This document shows positions 27,208 through 43,639 of a stretch of DNA of 64,000 nucleotides, one piece after another. The notes below the pieces were generated by a model, which had not been told where the DNA came from, did not search any database, and worked only from the letters and a program-made list of their open reading frames with translations. Position 1 is the first letter of the stretch, and each line of letters opens with the position of its first letter. The DNA lies in NCBI RefSeq assembly GCF_058153355.1, contig NZ_CM177019.1; one strand, written 5' to 3'. The position numbers and the translations under genes were made by a program.

Positions 27208-28680
27208 ATGGTACCTGTGGTCGCGCTTGTCGGGCGCCCTAACGTAGGAAAATCCACGTTATTTAACCGTCTAACTCGCACCCGAGATGCGCTGGTTGCG
27301 GATTTCCCGGGTCTGACTCGTGACCGTAAGTACGGTCGTGCGGAAATTGAAGGCCGCGAGTTTATTTGTATTGATACCGGCGGGATTGACGGAACAGAAG
27401 ACGGTGTAGAAACCCGCATGGCGGAACAGTCGCTGCTGGCGATTGAAGAAGCGGACGTCGTACTGTTTATGGTGGATGCGCGCGCGGGCCTGATGCCTGC
27501 GGATGAAGCGATTGCTAAACATCTGCGCTCCCGCGAAAAACCGACCTTCCTGGTGGCAAACAAAACCGATGGTCTGGATCCGGATCAGGCCGTTGTTGAT
27601 TTTTATTCGCTCGGTTTAGGTGAAATCTATCCTATCGCCGCGTCTCACGGTCGTGGCGTATTAAGTCTGCTGGAGCACGTGCTGTTGCCGTGGATGGAAG
27701 ATATCGCACCACAAGAAGAAGTGGATGAAGACGCTGAGTACTGGGCGCAATTTGAAGCGGAAGAGAACGGCGAAGAAGAAGAGGAAGACGACTTTGACCC
27801 GCAAAGTCTGCCAATCAAACTGGCGATAGTGGGTCGTCCTAACGTCGGTAAGTCTACACTCACTAACCGTATCCTTGGCGAAGAACGCGTCGTAGTTTAC
27901 GACATGCCGGGCACTACGCGTGACAGTATCTACATTCCAATGGAACGCGATGGGCGTGAGTATGTACTCATTGACACTGCGGGCGTACGTAAACGCGGCA
28001 AAATCACCGATGCGGTAGAGAAATTCTCCGTAATCAAAACATTGCAGGCGATTGAAGATGCCAACGTGGTGATGTTGGTGATTGATGCTCGCGAAGGTAT
28101 TTCCGATCAGGATCTCTCCCTGCTGGGCTTTATTCTCAATAGTGGGCGCTCACTTGTGATTGTAGTGAACAAGTGGGACGGCCTGAGCCAGGAAGTGAAA
28201 GAGCAAGTAAAAGAGACGCTGGACTTCCGTCTGGGCTTTATCGACTTCGCCCGTGTGCATTTTATCTCTGCATTACACGGCAGTGGCGTTGGTAATCTGT
28301 TTGAATCAGTGCGTGAAGCGTATGACAGCTCCACCCGTCGTGTGGGGACATCTATGCTGACGCGTATCATGACCATGGCGGTTGAAGATCACCAGCCGCC
28401 GCTGGTTCGCGGGCGTCGTGTGAAGCTGAAATATGCCCACGCCGGTGGTTACAATCCGCCGATTGTGGTGATTCACGGCAACCAAGTGAAAGACCTGCCT
28501 GATTCGTACAAACGCTACTTGATGAATTACTTCCGCAAGTCTCTGGACGTGATGGGTACGCCGATTCGTATTCAGTTCAAAGAAGGGGAAAACCCATATG
28601 CGAACAAGCGTAACACCCTGACGCCGACCCAGATGCGCAAGCGTAAGCGTTTGATGAAGCATATTAAGAAAAGTAAGTAA
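27208..28680 (+). CDS. der: ribosome-biogenesis GTPase Der (EngA)
   Basis: ATG at 27208 gives 490 aa; two G domains (GRPNVGKST twice) and a basic C-terminus. Confidence 0.95.
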
Positions 28681-28742
28681 TCACTTATCTGGTTTCCCTT
28701 TCCAAACGGAGAGGGAAACTGAACAACAGGCGAGGAGTATTT

Positions 28743-28958
28743 ATGGAACTCAACTGCCCAACCTGCCATAACCCTCTCGAACGCAACGGTGAAACTGCCC
28801 ACTGTGCAACTTGTGCCAAAGATTTCACCATTCAGGCGCTTTGTCCTGACTGCCATCAGCCATTACAGGTGTTAAAAGCTTGTGGTGCAGTAGATTATTT
28901 CTGCCAGCATGGGCACGGTTTAATATCCAAAAAGCGCGTTGAATTTATTGTTGCTTAA
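28743..28958 (+). CDS. yfgJ: zinc-ribbon protein YfgJ
   Basis: 71-aa ORF with CxxC...CxxC pairs. Confidence 0.85.
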   Translation: MELNCPTCHNPLERNGETAHCATCAKDFTIQALCPDCHQPLQVLKACGAVDYFCQHGHGLISKKRVEFIVA

Positions 28959-29149
28959 TATTATTTAAATATATGGTGTAATCATTTGTATTCATAATAT
29001 AAATGATTGCATCCTATTTTATTTGTTGAAACGCAAATGTAAGTGAGCGAAATCACTGTGTTATAAATTTAAGATTATATTTAGTTTTCCTGGCGTGCCT
29101 TTCTGAATAATCTGGAATAGAATATTAGAGCTAATTTTAAGCATTATTA
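28959..29149 (+). promoter_or_regulatory. AT-rich leader / probable promoter region of the accessory insert
   Basis: ~190 bp of AT-rich sequence immediately upstream of the sinH-like gene; no specific promoter elements resolved. Confidence 0.35.
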
Positions 29150-31342
29150 ATGTCACAGGGGATGTGCATGCTGCGATGGAAACGCTGTATTATGCTAACA
29201 TTTATCTCTGGAGCTGCTTTTGCGGCTCCAGAGATAAATGTTGAGCATAAAGAATCGTTACCTGATTTAGGTAGTCAGGCCGCACAACAGGAAGAGCAAA
29301 CTAACAAGGGTAAATCGCTAAAAGAGCGTGGTGCCGATTACGTCATTAACTCTGCCACGCAAGGGTTTGAAAACCTGACACCCGAGGCGCTGGAGTCCCA
29401 GGCCAGAAGCTATCTGCAAAGTCAAATTACCTCTACGACACAATCTTATATTGAGGATACACTCTCCCCCTACGGTAAGGTCCGAACGAATCTTTCTCTT
29501 GGTCAGGGCGGCGATCTGGATGGCAGTTCCATCGATTATTTTGTTCCCTGGTATGATAATCAAACTACTGTTTATTTCAGCCAATTTTCTGCACAACGAA
29601 AAGAAGATCGTACGATCGGGAATATTGGGCTTGGTGTAAGACATAATTTTGATAGATGGTTATTGGGTGGAAATATATTTTATGATTATGATTTTACCCG
29701 TGGGCATCGCCGTTTAGGTTTAGGTGCCGAAGCCTGGACTGATTATTTAAAATTCTCTGGCAACTATTATCATCCGCTTTCTGACTGGAAAGACTCCGAA
29801 GATTTCGATTTTTATGAGGAGCGTCCTGCGCGCGGTTGGGATATTCGCGCCGAAGCCTGGCTACCCGCTTACCCGCAGCTTGGCGGTAAAATCGTTTTCG
29901 AACAGTATTACGGTGATGAAGTCGCGCTTTTTGGCACCGATAATCTGGAGAAAGATCCCTTCGCCGTCACGCTGGGTGTGAAATACCAGCCCGTACCGCT
30001 CATTGCCGTAGGAACGGATTTCAAAGCCGGCACTGGCGATAATACCGATCTTTCTGTTAACGCAACGCTGAACTACCAGTTTGGCGTCCCGCTCAAAGAC
30101 CAGCTTGATCCTGACAAAGTAAGCGCGGCTCACTCGCTCATGGGCAGCCGTCACGACTTTGTTGAACGTAACAACTTTATTGTTCTGGAATACAAAGAGA
30201 AAGATCCCCTCGATGTCACTTTGTGGCTGAAAGCTGATGCGACGAATGAACATCCCGAGTGCGTGATTAAAGATACGCCAGAAGCAGCCATCGGGCTGGA
30301 AAAATGTAAGTGGACCATTAACGCGCTCATTAATCATCATTACAAAATCGTTGCTGCCTCCTGGCAGGCGAAAAACAATGCTGCACGTACGCTGGTGATG
30401 CCGGTTATCAAAGAAAACACCCTTACTGAAGGGAACAACAACCACTGGAATCTGGTACTGCCTGCCTGGCAGTACAGCTCTGATAAAGCCGACCAGGAAA
30501 AACTCAATACCTGGCGGGTACGCCTGGCGCTGGAAGATGAAAAAGGCAATCGGCAGAACTCCGGCGTGGTGGAAATCACCGTTCAGCAGGATCGTAAAAT
30601 TGAGCTCATCGTTAACAACATCGCCAATGTACCGGATGAGAACAATCACAGCCACGAAGCCAGCGCGCAAGCGGATGGTGTAGATGGTGTCGTCATGGAT
30701 CTCGACGTTACCGATAGCTTTGGCGACAACACTGACCGTAACGGTAATGTCTTGCCGCAGGATAATCTCAGCCCGCAGCTGTTTGATGCCAACGATAAAA
30801 AAGTGACGCTGGCGAATAAACCCTGCACCACCGAAGTGCCGTGCGTTTTTATCGCCAAACAAGATAAAGAAAAGGGGACCGTTACGCTCTCCAGTACGTT
30901 GCCCGGCACCTTCCGCTGGAAAGCGAAAGCCGCCCCTTATGATGACAGTAACTATGTTGACGTAACGTTCCTGGGTTCTGACATCGGCGGGCTGAATGCT
31001 TTTATCTACCGCGTTGGTGCAGCTAAGCCCGTCAATCTTATCGGCAACAAAGAACCGTTGCCTCTCAATAGCCGCTATCGCTTTGTGCTGTGGCGCGACG
31101 CTAACAAAGACGGCGTGTTCCAGCTTTCTGAGAAGCTCACTGACGACGAGATGAAACAGTATGACTATCAGTGGGAATTCACGGGGAATAGCGTAAATGG
31201 CAATACCGGCGCGCAAACCAATACCACGAACGTCGATATAGAGATCCCGGCAACCAACAAGGAAGCGGCAGCAAAATTTAATGCTCAGGTAACCGATGGC
31301 GTGCAGGGATACGGTTTGCAGGTCAATTACAGCAAGAAATAG
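29150..31342 (+). CDS. sinH: intimin/invasin-family inverse autotransporter (SinH-like)
   Basis: 730-aa ORF. Residues ~150–340 match the intimin/invasin beta-barrel translocator (…ERPARGWDIRAEAWLPAYPQLGGKIVFEQYYGDEVALFG…GVKYQPVPLIAVGTDFKAGTGDNTDLSVNATLNYQFG…SRHDFVERNNFIVLEYKEKD, compare intimin …LIYEQYYGDNVALF…SRYDLVQRNNNIILEYKK). Signal peptide present; first in-frame start may be downstream of 29150. Confidence 0.8.
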   Translation: MSQGMCMLRWKRCIMLTFISGAAFAAPEINVEHKESLPDLGSQAAQQEEQTNKGKSLKERGADYVINSATQGFENLTPEALESQARSYLQSQITSTTQSYIEDTLSPYGKVRTNLSLGQGGDLDGSSIDYFVPWYDNQTTVYFSQFSAQRKEDRTIGNIGLGVRHNFDRWLLGGNIFYDYDFTRGHRRLGLGAEAWTDYLKFSGNYYHPLSDWKDSEDFDFYEERPARGWDIRAEAWLPAYPQLGGKIVFEQYYGDEVALFGTDNLEKDPFAVTLGVKYQPVPLIAVGTDFKAGTGDNTDLSVNATLNYQFGVPLKDQLDPDKVSAAHSLMGSRHDFVERNNFIVLEYKEKDPLDVTLWLKADATNEHPECVIKDTPEAAIGLEKCKWTINALINHHYKIVAASWQAKNNAARTLVMPVIKENTLTEGNNNHWNLVLPAWQYSSDKADQEKLNTWRVRLALEDEKGNRQNSGVVEITVQQDRKIELIVNNIANVPDENNHSHEASAQADGVDGVVMDLDVTDSFGDNTDRNGNVLPQDNLSPQLFDANDKKVTLANKPCTTEVPCVFIAKQDKEKGTVTLSSTLPGTFRWKAKAAPYDDSNYVDVTFLGSDIGGLNAFIYRVGAAKPVNLIGNKEPLPLNSRYRFVLWRDANKDGVFQLSEKLTDDEMKQYDYQWEFTGNSVNGNTGAQTNTTNVDIEIPATNKEAAAKFNAQVTDGVQGYGLQVNYSKK

Positions 31343-31391: not shown

Positions 31392-32390
31392 GTGTTTATG
31401 AAACCTGATATGAAACGTGGCCTGACAAAAGTCGCGCTCGCGTTGATGCTGGCTGGATACTGTGCCGTACCAGCCGCTATGGCGGAAGATGCCGCCTGGG
31501 TCGCCAGTGGAGCGACCGCTGAATTCGAAGGGACTATACCCTGGCTCTATCGCGAAGGGGGGAATGCCACGATTAACTCGGAAGATGCGGATCACATTAA
31601 AGTGACGTCTGATGGTAAAGGGACCCGTCCTCCAGGTAGCGAGACGGATAAACGCCTTTACTCAGGGGATACCATCACGCTGGGTTGGGATATCGGCGAT
31701 ACCGAAGGGGATATTGATGATGGTCCCGCAGGCATTGATGCGAAAACGACGGCCACTATCAAATGGTACAGCTACAGCAATAATGCGGGTGGCGATAAAA
31801 CTGAGCTGACCGCAGCGGCAGGCAAGACGAGTTATAAACTCACTGATGACGATCGTGGGCGTTATATCGGTGTTGAAATCCAGCCCATCACCCAGACCGG
31901 TAATCCCTTCGAGGGAACGTCGCTGACTCTGCTGGATATTTCAACGGCCAGCGGTGGCGGCAGCGATACGGACAATGTCGATCCCGGCCCGGTTGTGAAC
32001 CAGAATCTGAAAGTTGCCATCTTCGAGAAAGGCACCACTACCAACCTTATCGGTGGTAACACGGCCATTGCGCTTAATAAAACATATGTGGCCAAACTGT
32101 ACTCGGATGAAAACCAGAACGATAAATACGACGCAGGTACGGATATGGACGTTACCGCTAACTATGACTTTGCATGGGTCTTTAACGGTAACAGTAAACA
32201 ACTCCGTGCTGCAGGCGGTATTGCTAATGCCAGCTTCGATAACAATGACATTGTTATCCCGCAAACTAACGAAGAAGCAAGAACCAGCCTTAACGGTAGT
32301 GACCGTAATGGTAAGAGTGGTCTTGCGATCCCAGCAAACGGCGACGGCGTTCAGGGCTATACGCTGTCAATTATTTACAAACACCACTAA
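31392..32390 (+). CDS. sinI: secreted protein paralogous to the SinH C-terminal domain (SinI-like)
   Basis: 332-aa ORF with signal peptide (KVALALMLAGYCAVPAAMA). C-terminus shares clear motifs with the SinH C-terminus: YDFAWVFNGNS / YDYQWEFTGNS, IVIPQTNEEAR / IEIPATNKEAA, DGVQGYTLSIIY / DGVQGYGLQVNY. Confidence 0.6.
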   Translation: MFMKPDMKRGLTKVALALMLAGYCAVPAAMAEDAAWVASGATAEFEGTIPWLYREGGNATINSEDADHIKVTSDGKGTRPPGSETDKRLYSGDTITLGWDIGDTEGDIDDGPAGIDAKTTATIKWYSYSNNAGGDKTELTAAAGKTSYKLTDDDRGRYIGVEIQPITQTGNPFEGTSLTLLDISTASGGGSDTDNVDPGPVVNQNLKVAIFEKGTTTNLIGGNTAIALNKTYVAKLYSDENQNDKYDAGTDMDVTANYDFAWVFNGNSKQLRAAGGIANASFDNNDIVIPQTNEEARTSLNGSDRNGKSGLAIPANGDGVQGYTLSIIYKHH

Positions 32391-32499
32391 TGCGCACGAC
32401 TGCATTCCCGTAGGGGAATGCTGTTTTCCGCCTGTTTTGCTTAGCGACGCGTTAAGCAAAACAGGTTGATGTTTTGTTTATCATGTTGGAGTTTTCTAC

Positions 32500-35400
32500 A
32501 TGTCGGTATGTCTGAAACCAGGGAAAATCATTATGCTTCTGGGCATGTTGGCAGCGTTTATGCTGTCTGACTTTGCACGAGCAGGGGTGGAATGGCAGAC
32601 ATATCCTGATTCTACAGGCGAGTTTAACGGAACCGTTCCTTTTGCCGACAGCGCCAGCGTACCCGTCTATCAGGGCAGTGTTCAGCTTAATCCTGGCGAA
32701 TCTCATGATGTCGGGTTTTCTGCTAAACCGAATGAATTTAGCGTTGACGATGACGCCGCTAACCTGATTGTTGCTAATCCTCAGGACAATGAAGGCGACC
32801 AGTTTTCCACACCACCTGCGCTGCGCTGGGAAAATCAAACACCCCCTACCGTCAGCCTGGTGTGGGCCGATGCCGCCACGCCCGATGTACCCCTTAACCC
32901 ACAACCCATTGCTAACCGTAGCTTTTGTGCTCAGGGGCTCGCCGGACGCTCGCTGGTGGCCTGGCCGCAGATTGATGCGCAGCAAACCCTCCCACTGCTC
33001 TACCTGTTGACCTCGACCGGCTATCCCTATGCGGGGACGGTGGCGCTGGTGGACCAGAAAGTGACCCTGAACATCGCGCCCGCGCAGGGCGATTTAATCT
33101 CGGTGAGCGCCAGCGGTTATAACGAAACGATCGCGGCGGCAAAAACCACCGTTGGCGACACCATCACGCTCACCGTCACCACTAAAGATTGTCAGGGCAA
33201 CGTCGCGGGTAATATTCCGTTTATTATCAAACGTAAAGATGCTGAAAATCGCCAGGGGGCAGTGAATAATAGTGCGCCAGTGGTACTGGATAGCACCGAG
33301 TTAACGACGACGGCTACCGAATACCATGGCACCTCTGATGCCAACGGCACGGCCACCATCACGGTGAGCCAACCGAACGGCCCTGGCGTCAAAACGCCAC
33401 TGGTGGTCAGCATTTCCGGCATTGCGCAAACCAGCGAAACCGCGGTGATTTTTACGGTGCTCACCAGCCCGGACGCGGCGCAGGCTACGATGTGGGGCCA
33501 TATGGCGGAAACGGTAGAAGCGCACGGTTACACCTTCAGTCGACCAAAGCTGGCGGCAGAAGTCAGCAATGAAAGCGCCACGGTCGTCGATCACAACGAA
33601 ACCTGGTCCACCTTCACCTGGAGCGGCGCAGATAACCACTGCACCGTGCTGCCCGGCATGCGCCACTTCGGCGCGCTGGCGACCGTTATCCCCACATCGG
33701 TGCAGACAGTCCTTGGCTGGCCGATGCAGGGGGATTATTACTGGTCATCGCTGGCGGGCACCACCGGGCAGCACCATGCGGCGGATGTCTCTAACCGTGG
33801 TGAAACGCAAAAGCCGGATAGCACCCCGTTTCTTGTAAGCTGCGTGGATAAACCCGCGCCTGATGTCGAGCCGAAAATCGTCCTTACGCCCGAAAACTAT
33901 GATGATACGGCACAGGCGATGAAATCGCAGGTGGGCGAAGACGCCACGATGCGTCTGACGATCACCGACAATAAAAATAACGATCAACCACTGGCGTATT
34001 ACTACTTCTCGCTGCATCTGGATGACGGCGTTAACCGCAAAAATCAAACCGATTCCGCCTGGGAAGCCCATCCGGTGCAGATTACTGGTGGTTCGAATTT
34101 GCAACAGGTTGATGCTCACACCTATGAAGGCATGACCGATGTCAACGGTCAGGCTTCGCTAACCCTGAGTCAGCCCGACGGCGCAGGCGTGAAAACCCAT
34201 ATCACGGCGAAAATGCGCAGCAATTTTACGGCTACAGATGCCAAAGACGTGATTTTTACTGTGATCACCAGCCCGGACAGCGACAAGGCGCGGATGTGGG
34301 GCCATATGCGCGGCATTGTTGTATCTGGCAGTCTGTTCAAACGCCCAGTGCTGGCGGATGAAACTGAGCATGAACTGGGATCGGTGCGGGAAAATAACGA
34401 AGACTGGGCGCTGTTCGATCAAGACACCAGTATGCAGGCTGAATGCGGCGTCGGCCATACGCCAAGTCAGAGTGGGCTGGAAAGCCTTTTTTCAGCCCAT
34501 CCCGGTAACGCGATTGGCACTGAGTATGGCTGGCCCACCGCACAACAGAACTACCTAAGCGCGGTGGAGCAAGCCACGCATTCATCGGTGAATTTGGCGA
34601 ACGGAAACGTCGACAGCTACCCCGGCTTTAAGCGAAATTACCTCTCCTGTTCGGGCAATGAGATGGTCGCGAAGGTTGAAGTGAGCACCGATCACGATGT
34701 CACCCCTGGCAGCAAAGCGCAGGCCAAAGTGGGAGACACCGTCGTGATGACCGTGCGTACGGTTAACGCGCTCAATAATACCCCCGTTCCCTTTACTGCC
34801 TTCACCATCACTAAAGGCATGGGGTATAACCGAGCGGGGCTGGTGAGCGGGTTTGATGACCCGAGCAGCGGCGCAATCTCGATGAATGGCACGCAATACG
34901 GCACATCGCAGCCGTCGATGGTTTATACGGGTACGACAGATGCACAAGGCGTGGCAACGGTCGAAATAGAGCAACCACAAGGCGTCGGGCTAAGAACGGC
35001 GCTGAGCGTAACGCCGGTAAATTCCTACCTGCCGAATACCGTTAATTACAGCGTTATTTTCACCACCCCAACCAGCCCGGACGTTATTGGCGCGCAGATG
35101 TGGGGCCATATGGATGAAACGATTACTGTTGATTCATTAACCTTTACCCGGCCTAAGCTGGCAGCAGAAATCGCCAGTCCGGATGGCACACTAACGGAAA
35201 AAAACGAAGTCTGGGCGCGCGTTAGCCAGGCCAGTACGGCCATTACCAGTAAAGGCGGTTGCGGAGCCAATATGCTGCCGCGTCGCTCACAGCTCAGTGC
35301 GCTCTATGACGCTAATAACGGCAATGCGGTGCAAACCACACACGGCTGGCCGACGCAGCGTCAGCCCTACTGGAGCAGTTCCCCCGCGGATGTAACGCCG

Positions 35401-38400
35401 CACTATTACACCATTGCCCTGGATAACGGCGCACAGGCTATCGGCGGCGATACGCCGGTTTACGTCAGTTGCCTGACGACGGCGAACAAACCTGCCAGCA
35501 GCATTACGCTGGATGTGGTTGATAACGCACAGTGGGCTGCCGGAAATAACGCGGCGAAGCTGAAAAAAGGCGAAACGCTACGGGTTAAGGTAACGGTAAA
35601 AGATGCGCAGGGTAATCCGCTCACGGATATGCCATTTAAACTGAGTCGCGGAGACGGTTATACCCGCACGGGCGAAAAACATATTGCCGGTAGTGGCGAT
35701 GCGCTGGTGGCACCGGTGGTGATTAACAGTGGGCTGGCGGATGAAACGACGTTGAACGACACCGCGGGATTTTATACTGCCATGACCGGTAGCGACGGCA
35801 GCAAAATCCTCAATATTACCCGCCCGGATACTCACGGCACCAAAACGGCGCTGACGGCGACGTTGTATTCCGATGCAACAAAAAAAGACAGCCTGGATAC
35901 GATCTTTACTGTGGTCACCAGCCCGGATAGTAGCAAAGCGAAAATGTGGGGGCATATGCCGGAAACGGTGACGGCTGCGGACGGTACGGTATTTAAACGC
36001 CCGCTGTTGTTGAAGGAACTGGCCTATCAGACTGGGCGAACATCGACGTCTGAAGACAATGAAAACTGGGCGTTGTTTAACATTAATTATGCGAGTTCTT
36101 CCACGACGTATAGTGGCTGTGGAACCAACTATATTCCGACTCAAGCCGGTCTGACGTCACTGTTTGCTAATAATGCGGGCAACACCATGAAAACCGTGCA
36201 GGGCTGGCCGGTGGCAACACGCTATTTGTCCAACACGTCCGACAACGGCAGCATGGAGCAGCGTAACTACAAGGCGGTAGATCTCAGCAATGGCACGAGT
36301 GCGGCAGTGTCATCAACGGCGCTGCAACTGCTGACCTGCCAGACCACGCCGGTAACCACGGTGGGCCAAATTCTGCTGGAAGCGGCAGATCCGGCGACGC
36401 TGGATACCACCTATAACGTGGTAAAAGCGAAAAAAGGCGAAGAATCCGTGGTGCGCGTCACCACCAAAGATACGCAAGGCAACCTGGTGGGCAATACGGC
36501 ATTTATCCTGACGCGTGCCAACAGCGTGAGTCGGGCTAACGCATCAGCAACCGCGAGCGTGGGCGCGCTGACGGTGACGGATGCTTGGGGAAATACGCGA
36601 AATAATTTCCAGTCGACGAGTGAAACGATTTACGGCGTGACTGGTGCAGACGGGTCAACGACATTTACCCTGAAACAGGATAACAGTACCGGGTTAAGAA
36701 CCGATCTCACGGCAAAACTGGATACGTCCAGCAGCGTCAAGGCGACGCTACCGGTGGTCTTTACTGTCGTGACCAGCCCGGATTCGCCAAAAGCGAATTT
36801 TTGGGGACATATGGCCGAAACGGTGATGGCCTCCGACGGTACAATCTATAAACGACCACTGTTGTTGAAAGAGCTGAGTAACACCAGTGGTCGAAATTCT
36901 ACGGCTGAAAACGGTGAAGATTGGGCAAGATTCACCTGGACTCAGTCGGCTGACACCAGCATGAATGGGTGTGGTACAGATTATATGCCGACGCTGGATG
37001 GACTGAAGTCTTTGTATGACGCCAATAGCGGTAATGTGATGAGTACGGTGCAGGGATGGCCGGTAAAAACGACCTATCTCACCAATACCCCGAGTGATAC
37101 GCAAACAGGGAGCCGTTACTACAATGTGGTGCAACTGAATACTGGTGCAGTCTCACAAATCTCGACGAACACAGTCGTGCTACAAACCTGCCGCACAACG
37201 CCGTTGACGGCTGCTAGCCAGATTACGCTGGAGGCCTCAGACCCCGCGCAATTTGTCAGCATTGACAGTACGCTTAGCGCGATCAAAGTGCAGAAAGGCG
37301 ATAGCGTGTCGATCCGCATTTCGACTAAAGATGCACAGGGGAATTTAGTCGGCAATACGCCGTTTGCCCTGAAACACGCTAACCCGGTCAATCGCCAAAA
37401 TGTGGCGTCAACATCGCAGAAAGTGTCGGTCACGACTGCGTCGGGTACGACGGTGGATACCACTGCATCGACCATTCTGTATGGCGTGACCGGGCCAGAC
37501 GGAACCACCACGATGACACTCCGACAGGATGCGTCTACTGGACTCAAAACCGACTTTTATGCTCTGTTGAACGATACCGGCGTGTCGTCGAACACCTTGC
37601 CAGTGATCTTCACCGTCGTCACCAGCCCGGATACACCGCTGGCGGCCAACTGGGGGCATATGGCAGAAACCTTTACCAGCAGCAAGGGAGTCACCTTCAA
37701 ACGGCCTTTCCTCAAAGCTGAACTTTCTGGTGGTACGGCGGTAACGACCAATAATGAAGTCTGGTCGCGCCTGACAGCAACGGAGAAAACGGATGCCAGC
37801 AAGGCTGGGTGTGATGAGAGTTATCAACCGCTGATGACTGACATGCAGGGGTTGTATGCGGATTACCCTAACAACCAGTTGGGCACGGTGCTCGGCTTGC
37901 CGACTTCCGCCGGGTATATGTGGGCCTACGACATGATGACGGTTTCTGGCAGCAGCTGGAGCAACCAGGCATATTCGCTCGTTAATGGTCAGACAGTTCA
38001 GGCATCGTCCAGTTATACGGCGGTAGTGATGTGCCTGGTGGAACCGCATACCGTTCCGGCGATGATAGAGATCACTTCAACAGCACAGGATGCGGCAAAA
38101 ACGGTCAGCAATGGTGGTCGACCGAGCGCCGTAGCGAAGAAAGGTGAGACGATTCCGCTGACGGTGACCGTACGTGATAGCACCGGGAATCCGGTACCCT
38201 ACGCCGACTTTACCCTCACGCGTGGAACGACGCTGGATCGCTCGAAAGCAACCGTTAACTCGAGTGCGGACGATCTTACCGTGAAGTCATTGATACCCGC
38301 GAACAGTGACGCTGGGCTGACGGCAAATGGGGCAAAAGTGCTCAGAACAACGGGCAGTGATGGCACAGCCACCTTTGAAGTGAGCCAGAATGCCACGACA

Positions 38401-40590
38401 GGACTGGCGACCCCCATAACCGTCACGCTGGCGCGTGATGTAACCAAAACCGCCACGCTGGATGTTATCTACACGGTGATAACCAGCCCGGACTCACCGA
38501 GCGCGAAATTCTGGGGGCACATGCCGGACACCTTTACCAGTTCGGCAGGCGTCACCTTCAGACGACCGCTGCTGAAAGCCGAAGCGACTTCAGGGTCATC
38601 GATTAGCACTAACGGCAATGGTGAAGTGTGGTCGTATATGAGCAACGTTCAAAATTTAACATCGACAGATTGTCCGCTGGAGAATCAACCGCGCAGTAAT
38701 GAATTGTTGGATTTGTATAATGATCATCCCAACGGCGCGATAATGACTGACCTGGGGCTGCCGATATATGCAGGCAAGTGGTGGGCTTATGATATGGTCA
38801 TGCCGGATTTATATACGTGGCAGTATCAGACGGTCAGCCTGAGCGCAGGAGATATCGCGAAGAGCTCGGCAAGCAACGCGCTGATGCTTTGCCTGACGAA
38901 GCCGCATCCGGCAGGCGTCAGCGTAATGTTGACGTCATCCGCAATGGATAACGCCAGAACCCTCAGTAATGGCGGGCGACCCAGCGCGTCAGTGAAAAAA
39001 GGTAACCCACTGCCAATTGTGGTGACGGTCAAAGATCGTGATGGCAACCCGCTGGCGGGAGAGGCCGTGACGCTCAGGCGTGGTTCAGCGATGAGTCGTT
39101 CAGGAGCAGGAGTGGGCACGCCGGCAAATGCAATGACGTTGACAGAATTGACACCTGTGTCGGCGGAGTTTTCTCTGGCCGCACACGATACGCAATGGCA
39201 AGGTTTCACCGGCAGTGATGGTACGGCCACTTTCAATGTTGAACAGCCTGAGACCATCGGCCTGGCCATTTCGTTCACCGCTATACTGGCGCGAGATGTA
39301 GCAACTACCAGCGTCCTTGATGCGATCTTTACCGTCGTTACCAGCCCGGATTCCGCAATGGCGACCTACTGGGGCCATATGCCGGATACGGTAACGGCGG
39401 AAAACGGCGTGGTCTTTGAACGGCCTAAATTGTTGAAAGAGCTGCCGTCGAGCGCCGGAGTCAGTCAGGTGACGGATAACAATGAAGTGTGGCCGTTGTT
39501 TAAGGCAACGCAAAGGGAAGATAGCAGCCTCAGTCCTTGTGAAGCGGCACGTCGGCCATTGAGCGATGATTTATTATCGCTCTACGCGCGCTATCCGGGG
39601 AACACGCTGACGACTCAAATCGGCTGGTCTACGAAGTATGCATGGTGGGCACTGGATAACAAGCAGGGGAATGCCCTGGTTGTCAGTCTGAATAATGGTT
39701 TTGAGTCGTCGACGGCGAGTACGGGGTATCAGGGATGTCTGGTCAATCCCCGCGCGACCGTCTCCAGCGTCACGCTGACATCGACGGCGCTGGATGCCAC
39801 TACGCAGGCAGCGAAGGTAAAAAAAGGTGAAGCCGTGCCCCTCGTTGTTACCGTAAAAGACAACGCCGGGAAGCCGGTACCGAATGTCGCTTTCACCTTA
39901 AAACGTGGTGATGCCATGCCACGTAACAGCGGGGCGACGTTGTACGGTGATGTTGCGGCGATGGATGATATGACGGTACAACCTGCCAGCGGGACGGTGG
40001 TAACGCTGGCTGACAGTGGGAATACGGTCGACGGAGTGACTGGGGCGGACGGTACGGCAAGTTTTACCGTTCGTCAGGATAATACGCCAGGATATAAAAC
40101 GCCGTTGACGGTGACGCTGACGGATAACGCCACAATAACGGCGATGCTGGATACGATTTTCACCGTCGTTACCAGTCCAAATGTACCCACAGCCCATTTT
40201 TGGGGACATATGTCGGATACCACTGTGGTAAACGGTAAAACGCTACATCGTCCACAGTTGGAATCAGAACTGCCATCGGCAGCCATCATGGTGGCAACAC
40301 CGAACGTCAATAATGAGACGTGGGCACTGGCGCATACTGTTGACTCGCAAAAATGGGATATTTCGCAGCAGTGCGGCCTCCTTGATTTTGCACCGAATTA
40401 TGCGGATTTAGAGGCTCTGCACACTAACTTCAGTACTCTCGGATGGCCGTCAATGCCTAATACCCCCTATCTATCTAAAGACAGAGAGCGGTCAGGTAAG
40501 TATTACTGCGGTATGATTGAAGAGACAGGTTCTCAATCTTGCAGTATTGAGCCTACCAGCACGCCGGGATTTGCTACTTGTGTCAGGTAA
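32500..40590 (+). CDS. ratA: giant repetitive surface protein, RatA-like (2696 aa)
   Basis: Single uninterrupted ORF with N-terminal signal-like hydrophobic segment ([17 protein letters not shown]) and nine tandem modules each carrying the motif [IV]FTV[VI]TSPD-x6-WGHM…RP.L…E.W…GCG…GWP…C. Confidence 0.75.
33000..40300 (+). repeat. nine tandem ~840-bp coding modules inside ratA
   Basis: TSPD-WGHM motif DNA (accagcccgga...tggggncatatg) recurs at about 33465, 34267, 35065, 35915, 36773, 37623, 38483, 39343 and 40173, period ~800–860 nt; the copies are diverged, not identical. Confidence 0.7.
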
Positions 40591-40599
40591 AAAAAACAG

Positions 40600-40630
40600 A
40601 GCCAGCACGACGATGCTGGCGCGTTTTATC
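40600..40630. terminator. hairpin between convergent ratA and xseA
   Basis: gccagcacgacgatgctggcg followed by ttttat, in the 44-bp gap between the two stop codons. Confidence 0.5.
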
Positions 40631-40634
40631 TGAT

Positions 40635-42041
<1,407 letters not shown>

Positions 42042-42090: not shown

Positions 42091-42135
42091 CAAAAAGGGG
42101 TAGATGCAATCGGTTACGCTCTGTATAATGCCGCG
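42091..42135 (+). promoter_or_regulatory. guaB promoter (-10 TATAAT at 42124..42129)
   Basis: Perfect TATAAT hexamer ~45 nt upstream of the guaB ATG, with an A/T-rich upstream tract; -35 not confidently assigned. Confidence 0.45.
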
Positions 42136-42172
42136 GCAATATTTATTAACCACTCTGGTCGAGATATTGCCC

Positions 42173-43639
42173 ATGCTACGTATCGCTAAAGAAGCTCTGA
42201 CGTTTGACGACGTTCTCCTCGTTCCTGCACATTCTACCGTTCTGCCGAATACCGCTGACCTCAGCACCCAGCTGACGAAAACTATTCGTCTGAATATCCC
42301 TATGCTCTCCGCAGCAATGGATACCGTAACGGAAGCGCGCCTGGCTATCGCCCTGGCTCAGGAAGGCGGTATCGGCTTTATCCACAAAAACATGTCCATT
42401 GAACGCCAGGCTGAAGAAGTTCGCCGCGTGAAAAAACACGAATCTGGCGTGGTAACCGATCCGCAGACTGTTCTGCCAACCACGACGCTGCGCGAAGTGA
42501 AAGAGCTGACCGAGCGTAACGGTTTTGCAGGCTATCCGGTTGTGACCGAAGAAAACGAACTGGTCGGCATTATCACCGGTCGTGACGTGCGTTTTGTTAC
42601 CGATCTGAACCAGCCGGTTAGCGTTTACATGACGCCGAAAGAGCGTCTGGTAACCGTGCGTGAAGGCGAAGCCCGTGAAGTGGTGCTGGCAAAAATGCAC
42701 GAAAAACGCGTTGAAAAAGCGCTGGTGGTTGATGATGAATTCCACCTGATCGGCATGATCACTGTGAAGGACTTCCAGAAAGCGGAACGTAAACCGAACG
42801 CCTGTAAAGACGAACAAGGCCGTCTGCGTGTAGGTGCAGCGGTTGGCGCAGGTGCGGGTAACGAAGAGCGTGTTGATGCGCTGGTTGCCGCAGGCGTTGA
42901 CGTTCTGCTGATCGACTCCTCTCACGGTCACTCTGAAGGCGTTCTGCAGCGTATCCGTGAAACTCGCGCTAAATATCCTGACCTGCAAATCATCGGCGGC
43001 AACGTGGCAACAGCTGCAGGTGCCCGCGCGCTGGCAGAAGCCGGTTGCAGTGCCGTTAAAGTGGGTATCGGCCCAGGTTCTATTTGTACTACCCGCATTG
43101 TTACTGGCGTCGGTGTACCGCAGATCACTGCCGTTGCTGACGCAGTAGAAGCCCTGGAAGGCACCGGGATTCCGGTTATCGCTGACGGTGGTATTCGTTT
43201 CTCTGGCGATATCGCCAAAGCTATCGCTGCTGGTGCAAGCGCGGTGATGGTAGGTTCCATGCTGGCGGGTACTGAAGAATCCCCAGGTGAAATCGAGCTC
43301 TACCAGGGCCGTTCTTACAAGTCTTACCGTGGGATGGGCTCTCTGGGCGCGATGTCCAAAGGTTCTTCTGACCGTTACTTCCAGAGCGACAACGCTGCCG
43401 ACAAACTGGTGCCGGAAGGTATCGAAGGCCGTGTAGCCTACAAAGGTCGTCTGAAAGAGATCATTCACCAGCAGATGGGCGGCCTGCGCTCCTGTATGGG
43501 CCTGACCGGCTGTGGTACTATCGACGAACTGCGTACTAAAGCGGAGTTTGTACGTATCAGCGGTGCGGGCATTCAGGAAAGCCACGTTCACGACGTGACC
43601 ATTACTAAAGAGTCCCCGAACTACCGTCTGGGCTCCTGA
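42173..43639 (+). CDS. guaB: IMP dehydrogenase
   Basis: ATG at 42173 gives 488 aa [21 protein letters not shown]...; CBS pair and catalytic loop [11 protein letters not shown]. Confidence 0.95.
42378..42386 (+). promoter_or_regulatory. consensus DnaA box (TTATCCACA) inside the 5' part of guaB
   Basis: Exact 9-mer TTATCCACA ~200 bp downstream of the guaB start. Confidence 0.35.

Follow-up and report, generated by a model that had tools for sequence, protein, structure and literature searches.

The RatA-like protein of an Escherichia coli sinH–sinI–ratA cassette is an array of nine alternating BIg21 and InvE_AD domains

Intimin and invasin each carry a single terminal adhesion domain (intimin D3, 1F02; invasin D5, 1CWV) on the passenger of an inverse autotransporter (IAT). 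InvE of Yersinia pseudotuberculosis (5N40), another inverse autotransporter, also ends in just one adhesion domain and brings its own β-barrel. Elsewhere, this InvE-type adhesion domain forms the very C-terminus of long proteins (~1000-2000 aa), of which the IAT InvE is the type case. A different arrangement is seen in Salmonella ZirT/ZirS/ZirU, in which the genes downstream of an IAT gene code for Ig-rich proteins that have a signal peptide and no barrel. SinH, SinI and the Rat proteins have been likened to this system, and that Rat-like proteins are IAT substrates is a published hypothesis (PMC4943183, PMC6714894). Salmonella RatA and RatB and the E. coli RatA-like proteins (NF011844, NF011843, NF011842) belong to the same family, with DUF823/DUF824 repeats and a sinH–sinI–rat locus beside xseA. 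The Salmonella counterpart island has been linked to intestinal persistence (PMC2658671), and work on SinH as a vaccine antigen is under way (PMC9937491).

Here, we analyzed a 64,000-nucleotide stretch of DNA (the window; contig NZ_CM177019.1 of assembly GCF_058153355.1), in which one open reading frame codes for 2696 amino acids plus a stop. Its product matches the NCBIfam equivalog NF011844, "RatA-like protein", with a score of 5386 bits, above the curated cutoff of 3870, and from end to end (aa 3-2695 onto profile positions 1-2682 of 2683), and an identical sequence is already deposited at NCBI as 'RatA-like protein [Escherichia coli]'. The name RatA-like, proposed in an earlier note on this DNA, is thus confirmed. 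The gene belongs to a sinH–sinI–ratA cassette placed between der and xseA, with the identical order in E. coli EC42405, 536 and ST131:

29150..31342, plus strand: sinH, which opens the cassette and encodes an intimin-like inverse autotransporter, the putative exporter or anchor (NF033423)
31392..32390, plus strand: sinI, SinI-family autotransporter-associated protein (NF040711)
32402..32466, plus strand: two hairpins (32402-32421 and 32430-32466) in the sinI–ratA spacer, a U-rich tract after each (terminator-like scan)
32500..40590, plus strand: coding sequence of the RatA-like protein (open reading frame; NF011844; identical NCBI protein)
40601..40620, no strand assigned: bidirectional terminator-like hairpin between the ratA-like gene and the convergent xseA
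40635..42011, minus strand: xseA, convergent with the ratA-like gene

SinH scores 1478 bits against NF033423 (cutoff 999) and SinI 377 bits against NF040711 (cutoff 165). The last ~100 amino acids of SinI resemble the C-terminus of SinH, and SinI has a weak match to ZirU_fam (E = 8.4e-6, below cutoff). The cassette is present in 1741 of 5426 complete E. coli genomes, about a third, including the ExPEC lineages ST131, 536 and IAI39.

Following a predicted signal peptide and an N-terminal domain, Pfam places nine BIg21 domains (PF05688, formerly DUF823) in strict alternation with nine InvE_AD domains (PF05689, formerly DUF824), the complete copies all at E of 1e-17 or better:

32500..32583, plus strand: predicted Sec signal peptide, aa 1-28 (…DFARA/G; read from the sequence)
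32584..33072, plus strand: N-terminal domain, aa 29-191 (~160 aa), no Pfam match
33073..33843, plus strand: module 1, BIg21 aa 192-321 and InvE_AD aa 322-448 (Pfam; alignment)
33844..34650, plus strand: module 2, BIg21 aa 449-589 and InvE_AD aa 590-717 (Pfam; alignment)
34651..35472, plus strand: module 3, BIg21 aa 718-857 and InvE_AD aa 858-991 (Pfam; alignment)
35473..36339, plus strand: module 4, the modelled one, BIg21 aa 992-1139 and InvE_AD aa 1140-1280
36340..37191, plus strand: module 5, BIg21 aa 1281-1424 and InvE_AD aa 1425-1564 (Pfam)
37192..38034, plus strand: module 6, BIg21 aa 1565-1707 and InvE_AD aa 1708-1845 (Pfam)
38035..38892, plus strand: module 7, BIg21 aa 1846-1994 and InvE_AD aa 1995-2131 (Pfam)
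38893..39738, plus strand: module 8, BIg21 aa 2132-2280 and InvE_AD aa 2281-2413 (Pfam)
39739..40587, plus strand: module 9, BIg21 aa 2414-2557 and tip InvE_AD aa 2558-2696, with four cysteines and hypervariable between alleles

Independently of Pfam, a search for TSP[DN]-x6-WGHM finds nine copies of the motif (at aa 322, 590, 858, 1140, 1425, 1708, 1995, 2281 and 2558), spaced by 268–287 amino acids. Together, the two counts bear out the nine tandem two-domain modules of ~280 amino acids described in the earlier note, and every string quoted there from the protein is present. Its list of invariant positions, by contrast, goes too far. In an alignment of the nine copies, the truly invariant positions are T-S-P, an A at +7, WGHM, R-P-x-L, an E, E-x-W, one P, one L, one G and the terminal cysteine; the D of TSPD is an N in copy 9, 'GCG' is restricted to copies 3–5, and 'SLY', 'GN' and 'GWP' hold in most copies but not in all. 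Any two copies share 27–53% identity in the adhesion domain and 20–52% in the Ig domain. Such repetition lies far outside what chance would give, yet it is old. This architecture is already annotated by Pfam and NCBIfam and was therefore known before, and the fold of the prototype is also public, so that our analysis adds little as discovery; a literature search by the Pfam names found no study dedicated to the BIg21/InvE_AD domains.

Compared to the nine modules of the window protein, a Salmonella RatA-like representative (1845 aa) has six, the E. albertii Rat-like protein seven, and Salmonella RatB would have about eight, as judged from a 2435-position model. Because diverged tandem repeats can recombine and collapse in short-read assemblies, the earlier note had asked whether the nine copies are an artefact, or an unstable repeat whose true number differs. 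Apart from this general expectation for tandem coding repeats, the one observation in its favor is that Rat-like proteins from different species, or paralogues, carry between 2 and 9 modules. Within the gene, however, DNA identity between modules is 45–55% and the longest exact word common to any two modules is at most 17 nt, so neither homologous recombination nor assembly collapse is supported. TRF reported no module-length array in the ratA-like gene (only a 21-nt row of period 10), as the repeats are too diverged, and the copies that a repeat search returned were all no longer than 119 nt, with 60-84% identity to their reference copy. Comparison among strains also revealed no change: all four E. 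coli alleles have nine modules despite per-domain identity down to 46%, among them the proteins of the complete genomes EC42405, 536 and ST131 (2694, 2683 and 2693 aa), and the end-to-end match to the NCBIfam equivalog agrees. What E. coli does show by way of deletion is a frameshift and a large sinH–ratA fusion, with no loss of a whole module. We thus consider an artefactual or unstable copy number extremely improbable, and short-read assemblies of the ratA-like gene trustworthy. Across species, modules 1-4 and the tip keep positional orthology and the central modules vary in number, which suggests an ancient array whose length would shift only between species, by gain or loss of central modules.

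The fold of the repeating unit is well supported by comparison with InvE. The conserved-domain profile matches InvE (5N40) with E = 2.5e-30. AlphaFold2 modelling gave pLDDT values of 96.6 and 94.7, a Foldseek search with the model matches the same structure with E = 1.7e-20 and a TM of 0.76, and the adhesion domain alone matches InvE (15.8), the C-terminal domain of Lcl (8.9), intimin 1F02 (7.2) and invasin 1CWV (6.9), as well as many animal C-type-lectin-like domains (CTLDs). In the model, a strand at residues 138-151 spans the junction of the two domains; the last β-strand of each BIg21 would thus continue straight into the C-type-lectin-like InvE_AD. Profile, model and structure search support a module composed of an Ig-like domain and a C-type-lectin-like domain akin to the tips of intimin and invasin, as the earlier note had inferred. 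The kinship with intimin D3 and invasin D5 is visible in the fold: identity to them is 12-17%, with no detectable sequence homology. Each adhesion domain contains exactly two cysteines, one central and one at the end, except for copy 9, which has four. Both are at least 90% conserved over 73-78 homologues and are presumably disulfide-linked.

The canonical sugar- and Ca2+-binding motifs (EPN/QPD, WND and WIGL) are absent from all nine adhesion domains. Hence 'lectin' here denotes the fold only, and the earlier description as lectin-like stands in this structural sense but not as a sign of sugar binding. In the animal receptors with several CTLDs (mannose receptor, DEC-205 and PLA2R), these domains follow one another with no Ig domains in between, and Ca2+/sugar sites persist in some of them; their kinship with the RatA-like protein is limited to the fold. 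We also compared Legionella Lcl/DUF1566 and the 'CLec2' proteins diversified by diversity-generating retroelements (DGRs): no DGR is evident in the neighborhood of the ratA-like gene, whose variation, unlike that of the DGR proteins, is allelic or recombinational. A multivalent ligand-binding rod is a plausible prediction from the array. The N- and C-termini of a CTLD are normally adjacent, so that, instead of a straight rod, the array may form a zig-zag or 'beads on a stalk'.

The ninth adhesion domain forms a distinct subclass, with four cysteines and the signature VNGKTLHRP…WA.AHT.D..WD…QCG…GFATC, and in most Rat-like proteins it is conserved at the final module position. Between otherwise near-identical alleles, the tip is 61% identical, compared to 93-100% elsewhere in the protein. 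Across 5426 complete E. coli genomes, nothing matches the tip allele of the window above 70.5% at the nucleotide level. Import from a sequenced relative found no backing: the best protein matches reach only 72%, 68% and 60%, two of the three being short fragments, and therefore point to no donor.

These properties invite the reading that the tip alone binds a ligand, monovalently, with the eight internal lectin-fold domains acting as spacers that stiffen and lengthen the protein. A single terminal copy suffices in InvE-like proteins, and the divergence of the tip mirrors intimin, whose subtypes are defined by the C-terminal domain. However, the internal domains keep the same conserved core together with a stretch from 'GWP' to the last cysteine that is variable and rich in indels, and adhesion domains 5–8 differ more than any other part when distant E. 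coli alleles are compared (46-61% identity), which would be odd for pure spacers. Moreover, simple Ig repeats, which serve other inverse autotransporters as spacers, would come at lower cost. We therefore judge a tip-only function unlikely. An InvE-type fold in every module, a variable tip and a stable array allow a rational choice of constructs for binding and structural studies, and the same three facts guide the reading of RatA-like allele diversity.

How the protein reaches its place of action is less directly visible. Unlike InvE, which brings its own β-barrel, the RatA-like protein combines nine in-line adhesion domains with no match to IAT_beta (PF11924) in a Pfam search across its whole length; by family search, the IAT barrel sits in the neighboring SinH, a separate polypeptide. 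Its signal peptide, a hydrophobic core followed by A-x-A, predicts Sec export of a protein of ~280 kDa. Old annotations of ratB as a 'putative lipoprotein' had suggested a lipoprotein; we rejected this for the RatA-like protein, as its sequence reads without a lipobox.

The N-terminal domain displays 39 invariant columns among 11 Rat-like proteins. At its start (aa 31-48) it bears the motif W-x(5-8)-[ST][TGA]-x-[IF]-x-GT-x-P, found by a multi-locus comparison in five Rat-like and seven SinI-like proteins. Aligning the Rat-like and SinI-like N-termini by hhalign yielded P = 1.1e-4 over 23 columns with a probability of only 56%. By BLASTP, the RatA N-terminus gave a non-significant 11-residue match to SinI (E = 0.11) and no match to SinH. 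A short N-terminal motif common to the RatA-like protein and SinI thus has modest support from the multi-locus and profile–profile alignments.

The best explanation of these data, which we hold to be somewhat favored as a whole, is that the window protein is the E. coli orthologue of the Rat proteins of the Salmonella CS54 island and a Sec-exported multi-domain surface adhesin acting with SinH and SinI. Architecture, homology and fold make up its observed part. The protein would consist of four parts (signal peptide, conserved ~160-aa N-terminal domain, eight 'stalk' modules and a specialized ninth 'tip' module), forming an elongated adhesin that is exposed at the cell surface or released from it. 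By analogy to ZirT, which serves ZirS and ZirU in this way, SinH may export or anchor it, with the N-terminal motif as a candidate recognition element. The lectin-fold domains, and chiefly the hypervariable tip, would contact a ligand through their variable loop region; this ligand would probably be a host protein or glycan, bound in a non-canonical, Ca2+-independent manner. The ratA-like gene lies directly downstream of an IAT locus, and its product has a predicted signal peptide and no barrel, the combination that characterizes ZirS/ZirU-type substrates. ZirS and ZirU are small, whereas the RatA-like protein is giant and contains lectin-fold domains, and we know of no ZirT-type export of a protein of such size or with such domains. 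Besides the lack of sugar and Ca2+ motifs, the shortness of the shared N-terminal motif and the hairpins ahead of ratA, further observations count against the best explanation: Kingsley et al. 2003 reportedly found no colonization phenotype for a Salmonella ratA mutant, in contrast to ratB, shdA and sivH mutants, and IatB/SinH makes biofilm without the downstream genes (PMC6714894).

Export by another route, or a role in the periplasm or envelope, would reduce the linkage to sinH to co-regulation or shared origin. The lumen of an IAT barrel is blocked by its own linker, a known problem for the ZirT model (PMC4943183), and a 12-stranded barrel would hardly admit nine to ten folded domains stapled by disulfides. 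Furthermore, on one contig sinH is interrupted by an insertion sequence, yet the sinI-like and Rat-like genes are intact, and the terminator-like hairpins between sinI and ratA mean that co-expression of the two genes is not guaranteed. Against this reading, the order IAT, SinI-like, Rat-like is strictly kept across genera and chromosomal contexts (E. coli, an Atlantibacter-like and a Citrobacter-like locus), E. coli Rb-50 carries the whole cassette in duplicate, and both putative substrates have the N-terminal motif in common. The adhesion domain elsewhere also occupies the C-terminus of long proteins, and in the type case, InvE, it is part of a surface-exposed IAT passenger. On balance, a SinH-independent protein appears doubtful.

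Extending the SinH-dependent explanation, we tentatively propose, at less than even confidence, a dedicated three-part system. In this model, SinH, as a short tip-less IAT, would recognize the common N-terminal motif of its two partners, export or dock them and display the ~280-kDa array of nine lectin folds in trans; the tip would diversify under host or immune selection, and a conserved double-hairpin attenuator would set how much RatA is made. The two-hairpin stretch has a minimum free energy of -44.6 kcal/mol (z = -5.0) and matches no Rfam family; the hairpins are conserved across genera, with compensatory changes in 9 of 31 pairs.

The plus-strand interval 32500–40590 is a single uninterrupted ORF encoding a RatA-like protein of 2696 amino acids. 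A TSP[DN]-x6-WGHM signature occurs nine times along it at a spacing of 268–287 amino acids, and Pfam assigns, with high significance, nine BIg21 domains (PF05688, formerly DUF823) that alternate strictly with nine InvE_AD 'Adhesion domains' (AD; PF05689, formerly DUF824). The alternation and the nine signatures confirm an earlier note's reading of the protein as nine two-domain modules. In our alignments, the ADs share 27–53% pairwise identity and the β-rich segments between them 20–52%. The residues that the note had listed as invariant were drawn too generously: GCG, SLY, GN and GWP are majority features, and the aspartate of TSPD is replaced by an asparagine in copy 9. Each AD apart from the ninth, which contains four, has just two cysteines: one in its center and the other right at its end.

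The NCBIfam model NF011844 ('RatA-like protein') matches end to end (5386 bits versus a cutoff of 3870), the Salmonella RatA and RatB models score lower, and NCBI already holds the identical sequence as 'RatA-like protein [Escherichia coli]'. Because the gene, the family, both repeat domains and the prototype domain fold are all in public resources, the protein counts as already known, and the note as a correct rediscovery from raw sequence. The gene and the elements discussed here are arranged as follows:

29150–31342, sinH, an intimin-like inverse autotransporter (IAT), upstream of ratA-like
31392–32390, sinI, upstream of ratA-like; the shared motif lies at SinI residues ~33–51, directly after the signal peptide
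32391–32499, sinI–ratA spacer with hairpins at 32402–32421 and 32430–32466, each followed by a U-rich tract
32590–32643, shared motif in the RatA-like protein (residues 31–48), directly after the signal peptide
40171–40587, tip AD, the ninth and last (residues 2558–2696)
downstream of ratA-like, xseA (convergent) and guaB

The order der, Zn-ribbon gene, sinH, sinI, ratA-like, xseA is kept in annotated E. coli genomes, and 1741 of 5426 complete E. coli genomes carry the ratA-like gene. Around the Zn-ribbon gene and the beginning of sinH (28001–30000), G+C falls to 0.456 versus 0.52–0.56 in the flanks, and AT skew across the ratA-like gene is strongly positive (0.08–0.15). Such a composition fits the insertion, between der and xseA, of an island that arose separately. 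Nearby, guaB (42104–43639) is 90–95% identical to 2826 of 5425 complete E. coli genomes; since identity of at least 99% is reached with only 11 of the 5425, in this region the strain belongs to, or has undergone recombination with, an uncommon E. coli lineage.

Searched as a profile, the nine AD copies matched one solved structure, that of the Y. pseudotuberculosis adhesin InvE (5N40, E = 2.5e-30). A further alignment, of Ig+AD modules, comprised 78 sequences, namely the protein's own copies and homologues from a search of 1.84 billion proteins. Because the Ig domain dominated the other matches, we modeled the ninth AD by itself (pLDDT 94.7). Profile match and model bear out the lectin-like fold that the note had proposed: the conserved domain is a C-type-lectin-like domain (CTLD) of the intimin/invasin/InvE kind. 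This fold does not imply lectin activity, since none of the nine ADs contains the sugar-binding C-type lectin motifs EPN/QPD, WND or WIGL; Sadana and colleagues reportedly reached the same conclusion for InvE in 2017. Carriers of the AD form only 307 clusters at 50% identity among 1.84 billion representative proteins, with either a single AD at the extreme C-terminus of long, InvE-like proteins (about 1000–2000 amino acids) or multiple copies in Rat-like proteins. Because the termini of a CTLD are usually adjacent, the chain of modules may run in a zig-zag instead of extending as a straight rod.

Tandem modules could be prone to recombination that changes their number, or to collapse during assembly, as the note had cautioned. 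Nucleotide identity between modules is 45–55%, the longest exact word common to any two is 17 nt, and Tandem Repeats Finder detected no module-length array, only a 21-nt row of period 10. Copies returned by the repeat finder matched the reference copy at only 60–84% identity and extended over at most 119 nt, mostly around the TSPD…WGHM codons. RecA-dependent recombination and assembler k-mers need more similarity than this to be confused, which argues against both concerns. Nor does module number change within the E. coli alleles compared: EC42405, ST131 and 536 (2694, 2693 and 2683 amino acids) have nine modules each, even with single domains down to 46% identical to the window's. Among the alleles examined, disruption took the form of a frameshift or of a large deletion between sinH and ratA, and not of module loss. 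The locus decays in some strains: in E. coli WL297 a deletion has fused sinH with the final ~490 nt of ratA-like, and in the probiotic E. coli A0 34/86 the ratA-like gene is frameshifted. Across species the number does vary, through differences in the central modules, with modules 1–4 and the type of tip retained:

E. albertii, 7 modules
Salmonella RatA-like representative, 6 modules
Citrobacter-like, 7 modules
Atlantibacter-like, 5 modules
small paralogues, 2–3 modules

Only the tip sets the window's protein sharply apart from alleles that otherwise match it at 93–100% identity. Its identity to three other E. coli alleles is only 61%, whereas the rest of the protein is 93–100% identical to EC42405. 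The C-terminal tip is the leading candidate for the primary binding site: it makes up a conserved subclass with two additional cysteines, diverges among alleles, reaches at most 70.5% nucleotide identity in any complete E. coli genome and has a best protein match anywhere of 72%. The same divergence suggests that the tip has recombined or is rapidly diversifying, as in the subtypes of intimin.

In all loci compared, Rat-like and SinI-like proteins have in common, at their mature N-termini, the motif W-x(5–8)-[ST][TGA]-x-[IF]-x-GT-x-P (five Rat-like and seven SinI-like proteins from several loci), and a D-[TN]-E-G-D stretch follows ~60 residues later in both RatA-like and SinI-like proteins. 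Profile–profile comparison (hhalign) gave P = 1.1e-4 over 23 columns at a probability of 56%, a suggestive relation; SinH may recognize both kinds of protein by this motif. Between sinI and ratA, the spacer folds with an MFE of -44.6 kcal/mol (z = -5.0) into two strong, terminator-like hairpins. They are kept among E. coli alleles and also at two loci at the level of other genera, and 9 of 31 pairs show compensatory changes. The hairpins, which have no match in Rfam, could act as a terminator or attenuator limiting read-through into ratA. We know of no earlier description of the shared motif, of the conserved double hairpin or of the array's positional logic (conserved base, variable center, hypervariable tip), all of them modest leads rather than surprises.

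Every retrieved locus contains a short IAT gene, a SinI-like gene and then directly a Rat-like gene, including a Citrobacter-like locus, an Atlantibacter-like locus with other chromosomal surroundings, the second cassette of E. coli Rb-50 and a contig with an apparently IS-cut sinH. Export of downstream proteins by the IAT has been proposed by analogy with ZirT/ZirS/ZirU, to which SinH–SinI–Rat is likened (Heinz et al. PMC4943183; Goh et al. PMC6714894). In the picture that we somewhat favor, the RatA-like protein would leave the cytoplasm via Sec, associate with SinH as an elongated surface protein and present its lectin-fold domains at the surface. Our confidence in the SinH-dependent export step, drawn by analogy, is lower than in this overall picture. 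Caveats are that SinH/IatB supports biofilm formation without its neighboring genes (PMC6714894) and that the terminator-like hairpins stand between sinI and ratA.

Some E. coli carry a second cassette, whereas the window has one only. In E. coli Rb-50 (AP025682.1, 4740–10355 of the retrieved locus), it stands in tandem upstream of the usual sinH–sinI–ratA, between der and the Zn-ribbon gene, and encodes an IAT of 731, a SinI-like protein of 311 and a two-module Rat-like protein of 784 amino acids. On a metagenomic contig, a C-terminal transposase fragment precedes the C-terminus of SinH (72 amino acids; positions 1–402), reflecting either an IS-interrupted sinH or an assembly break at the IS; the sinI-like gene and a nine-module Rat-like gene are intact there.
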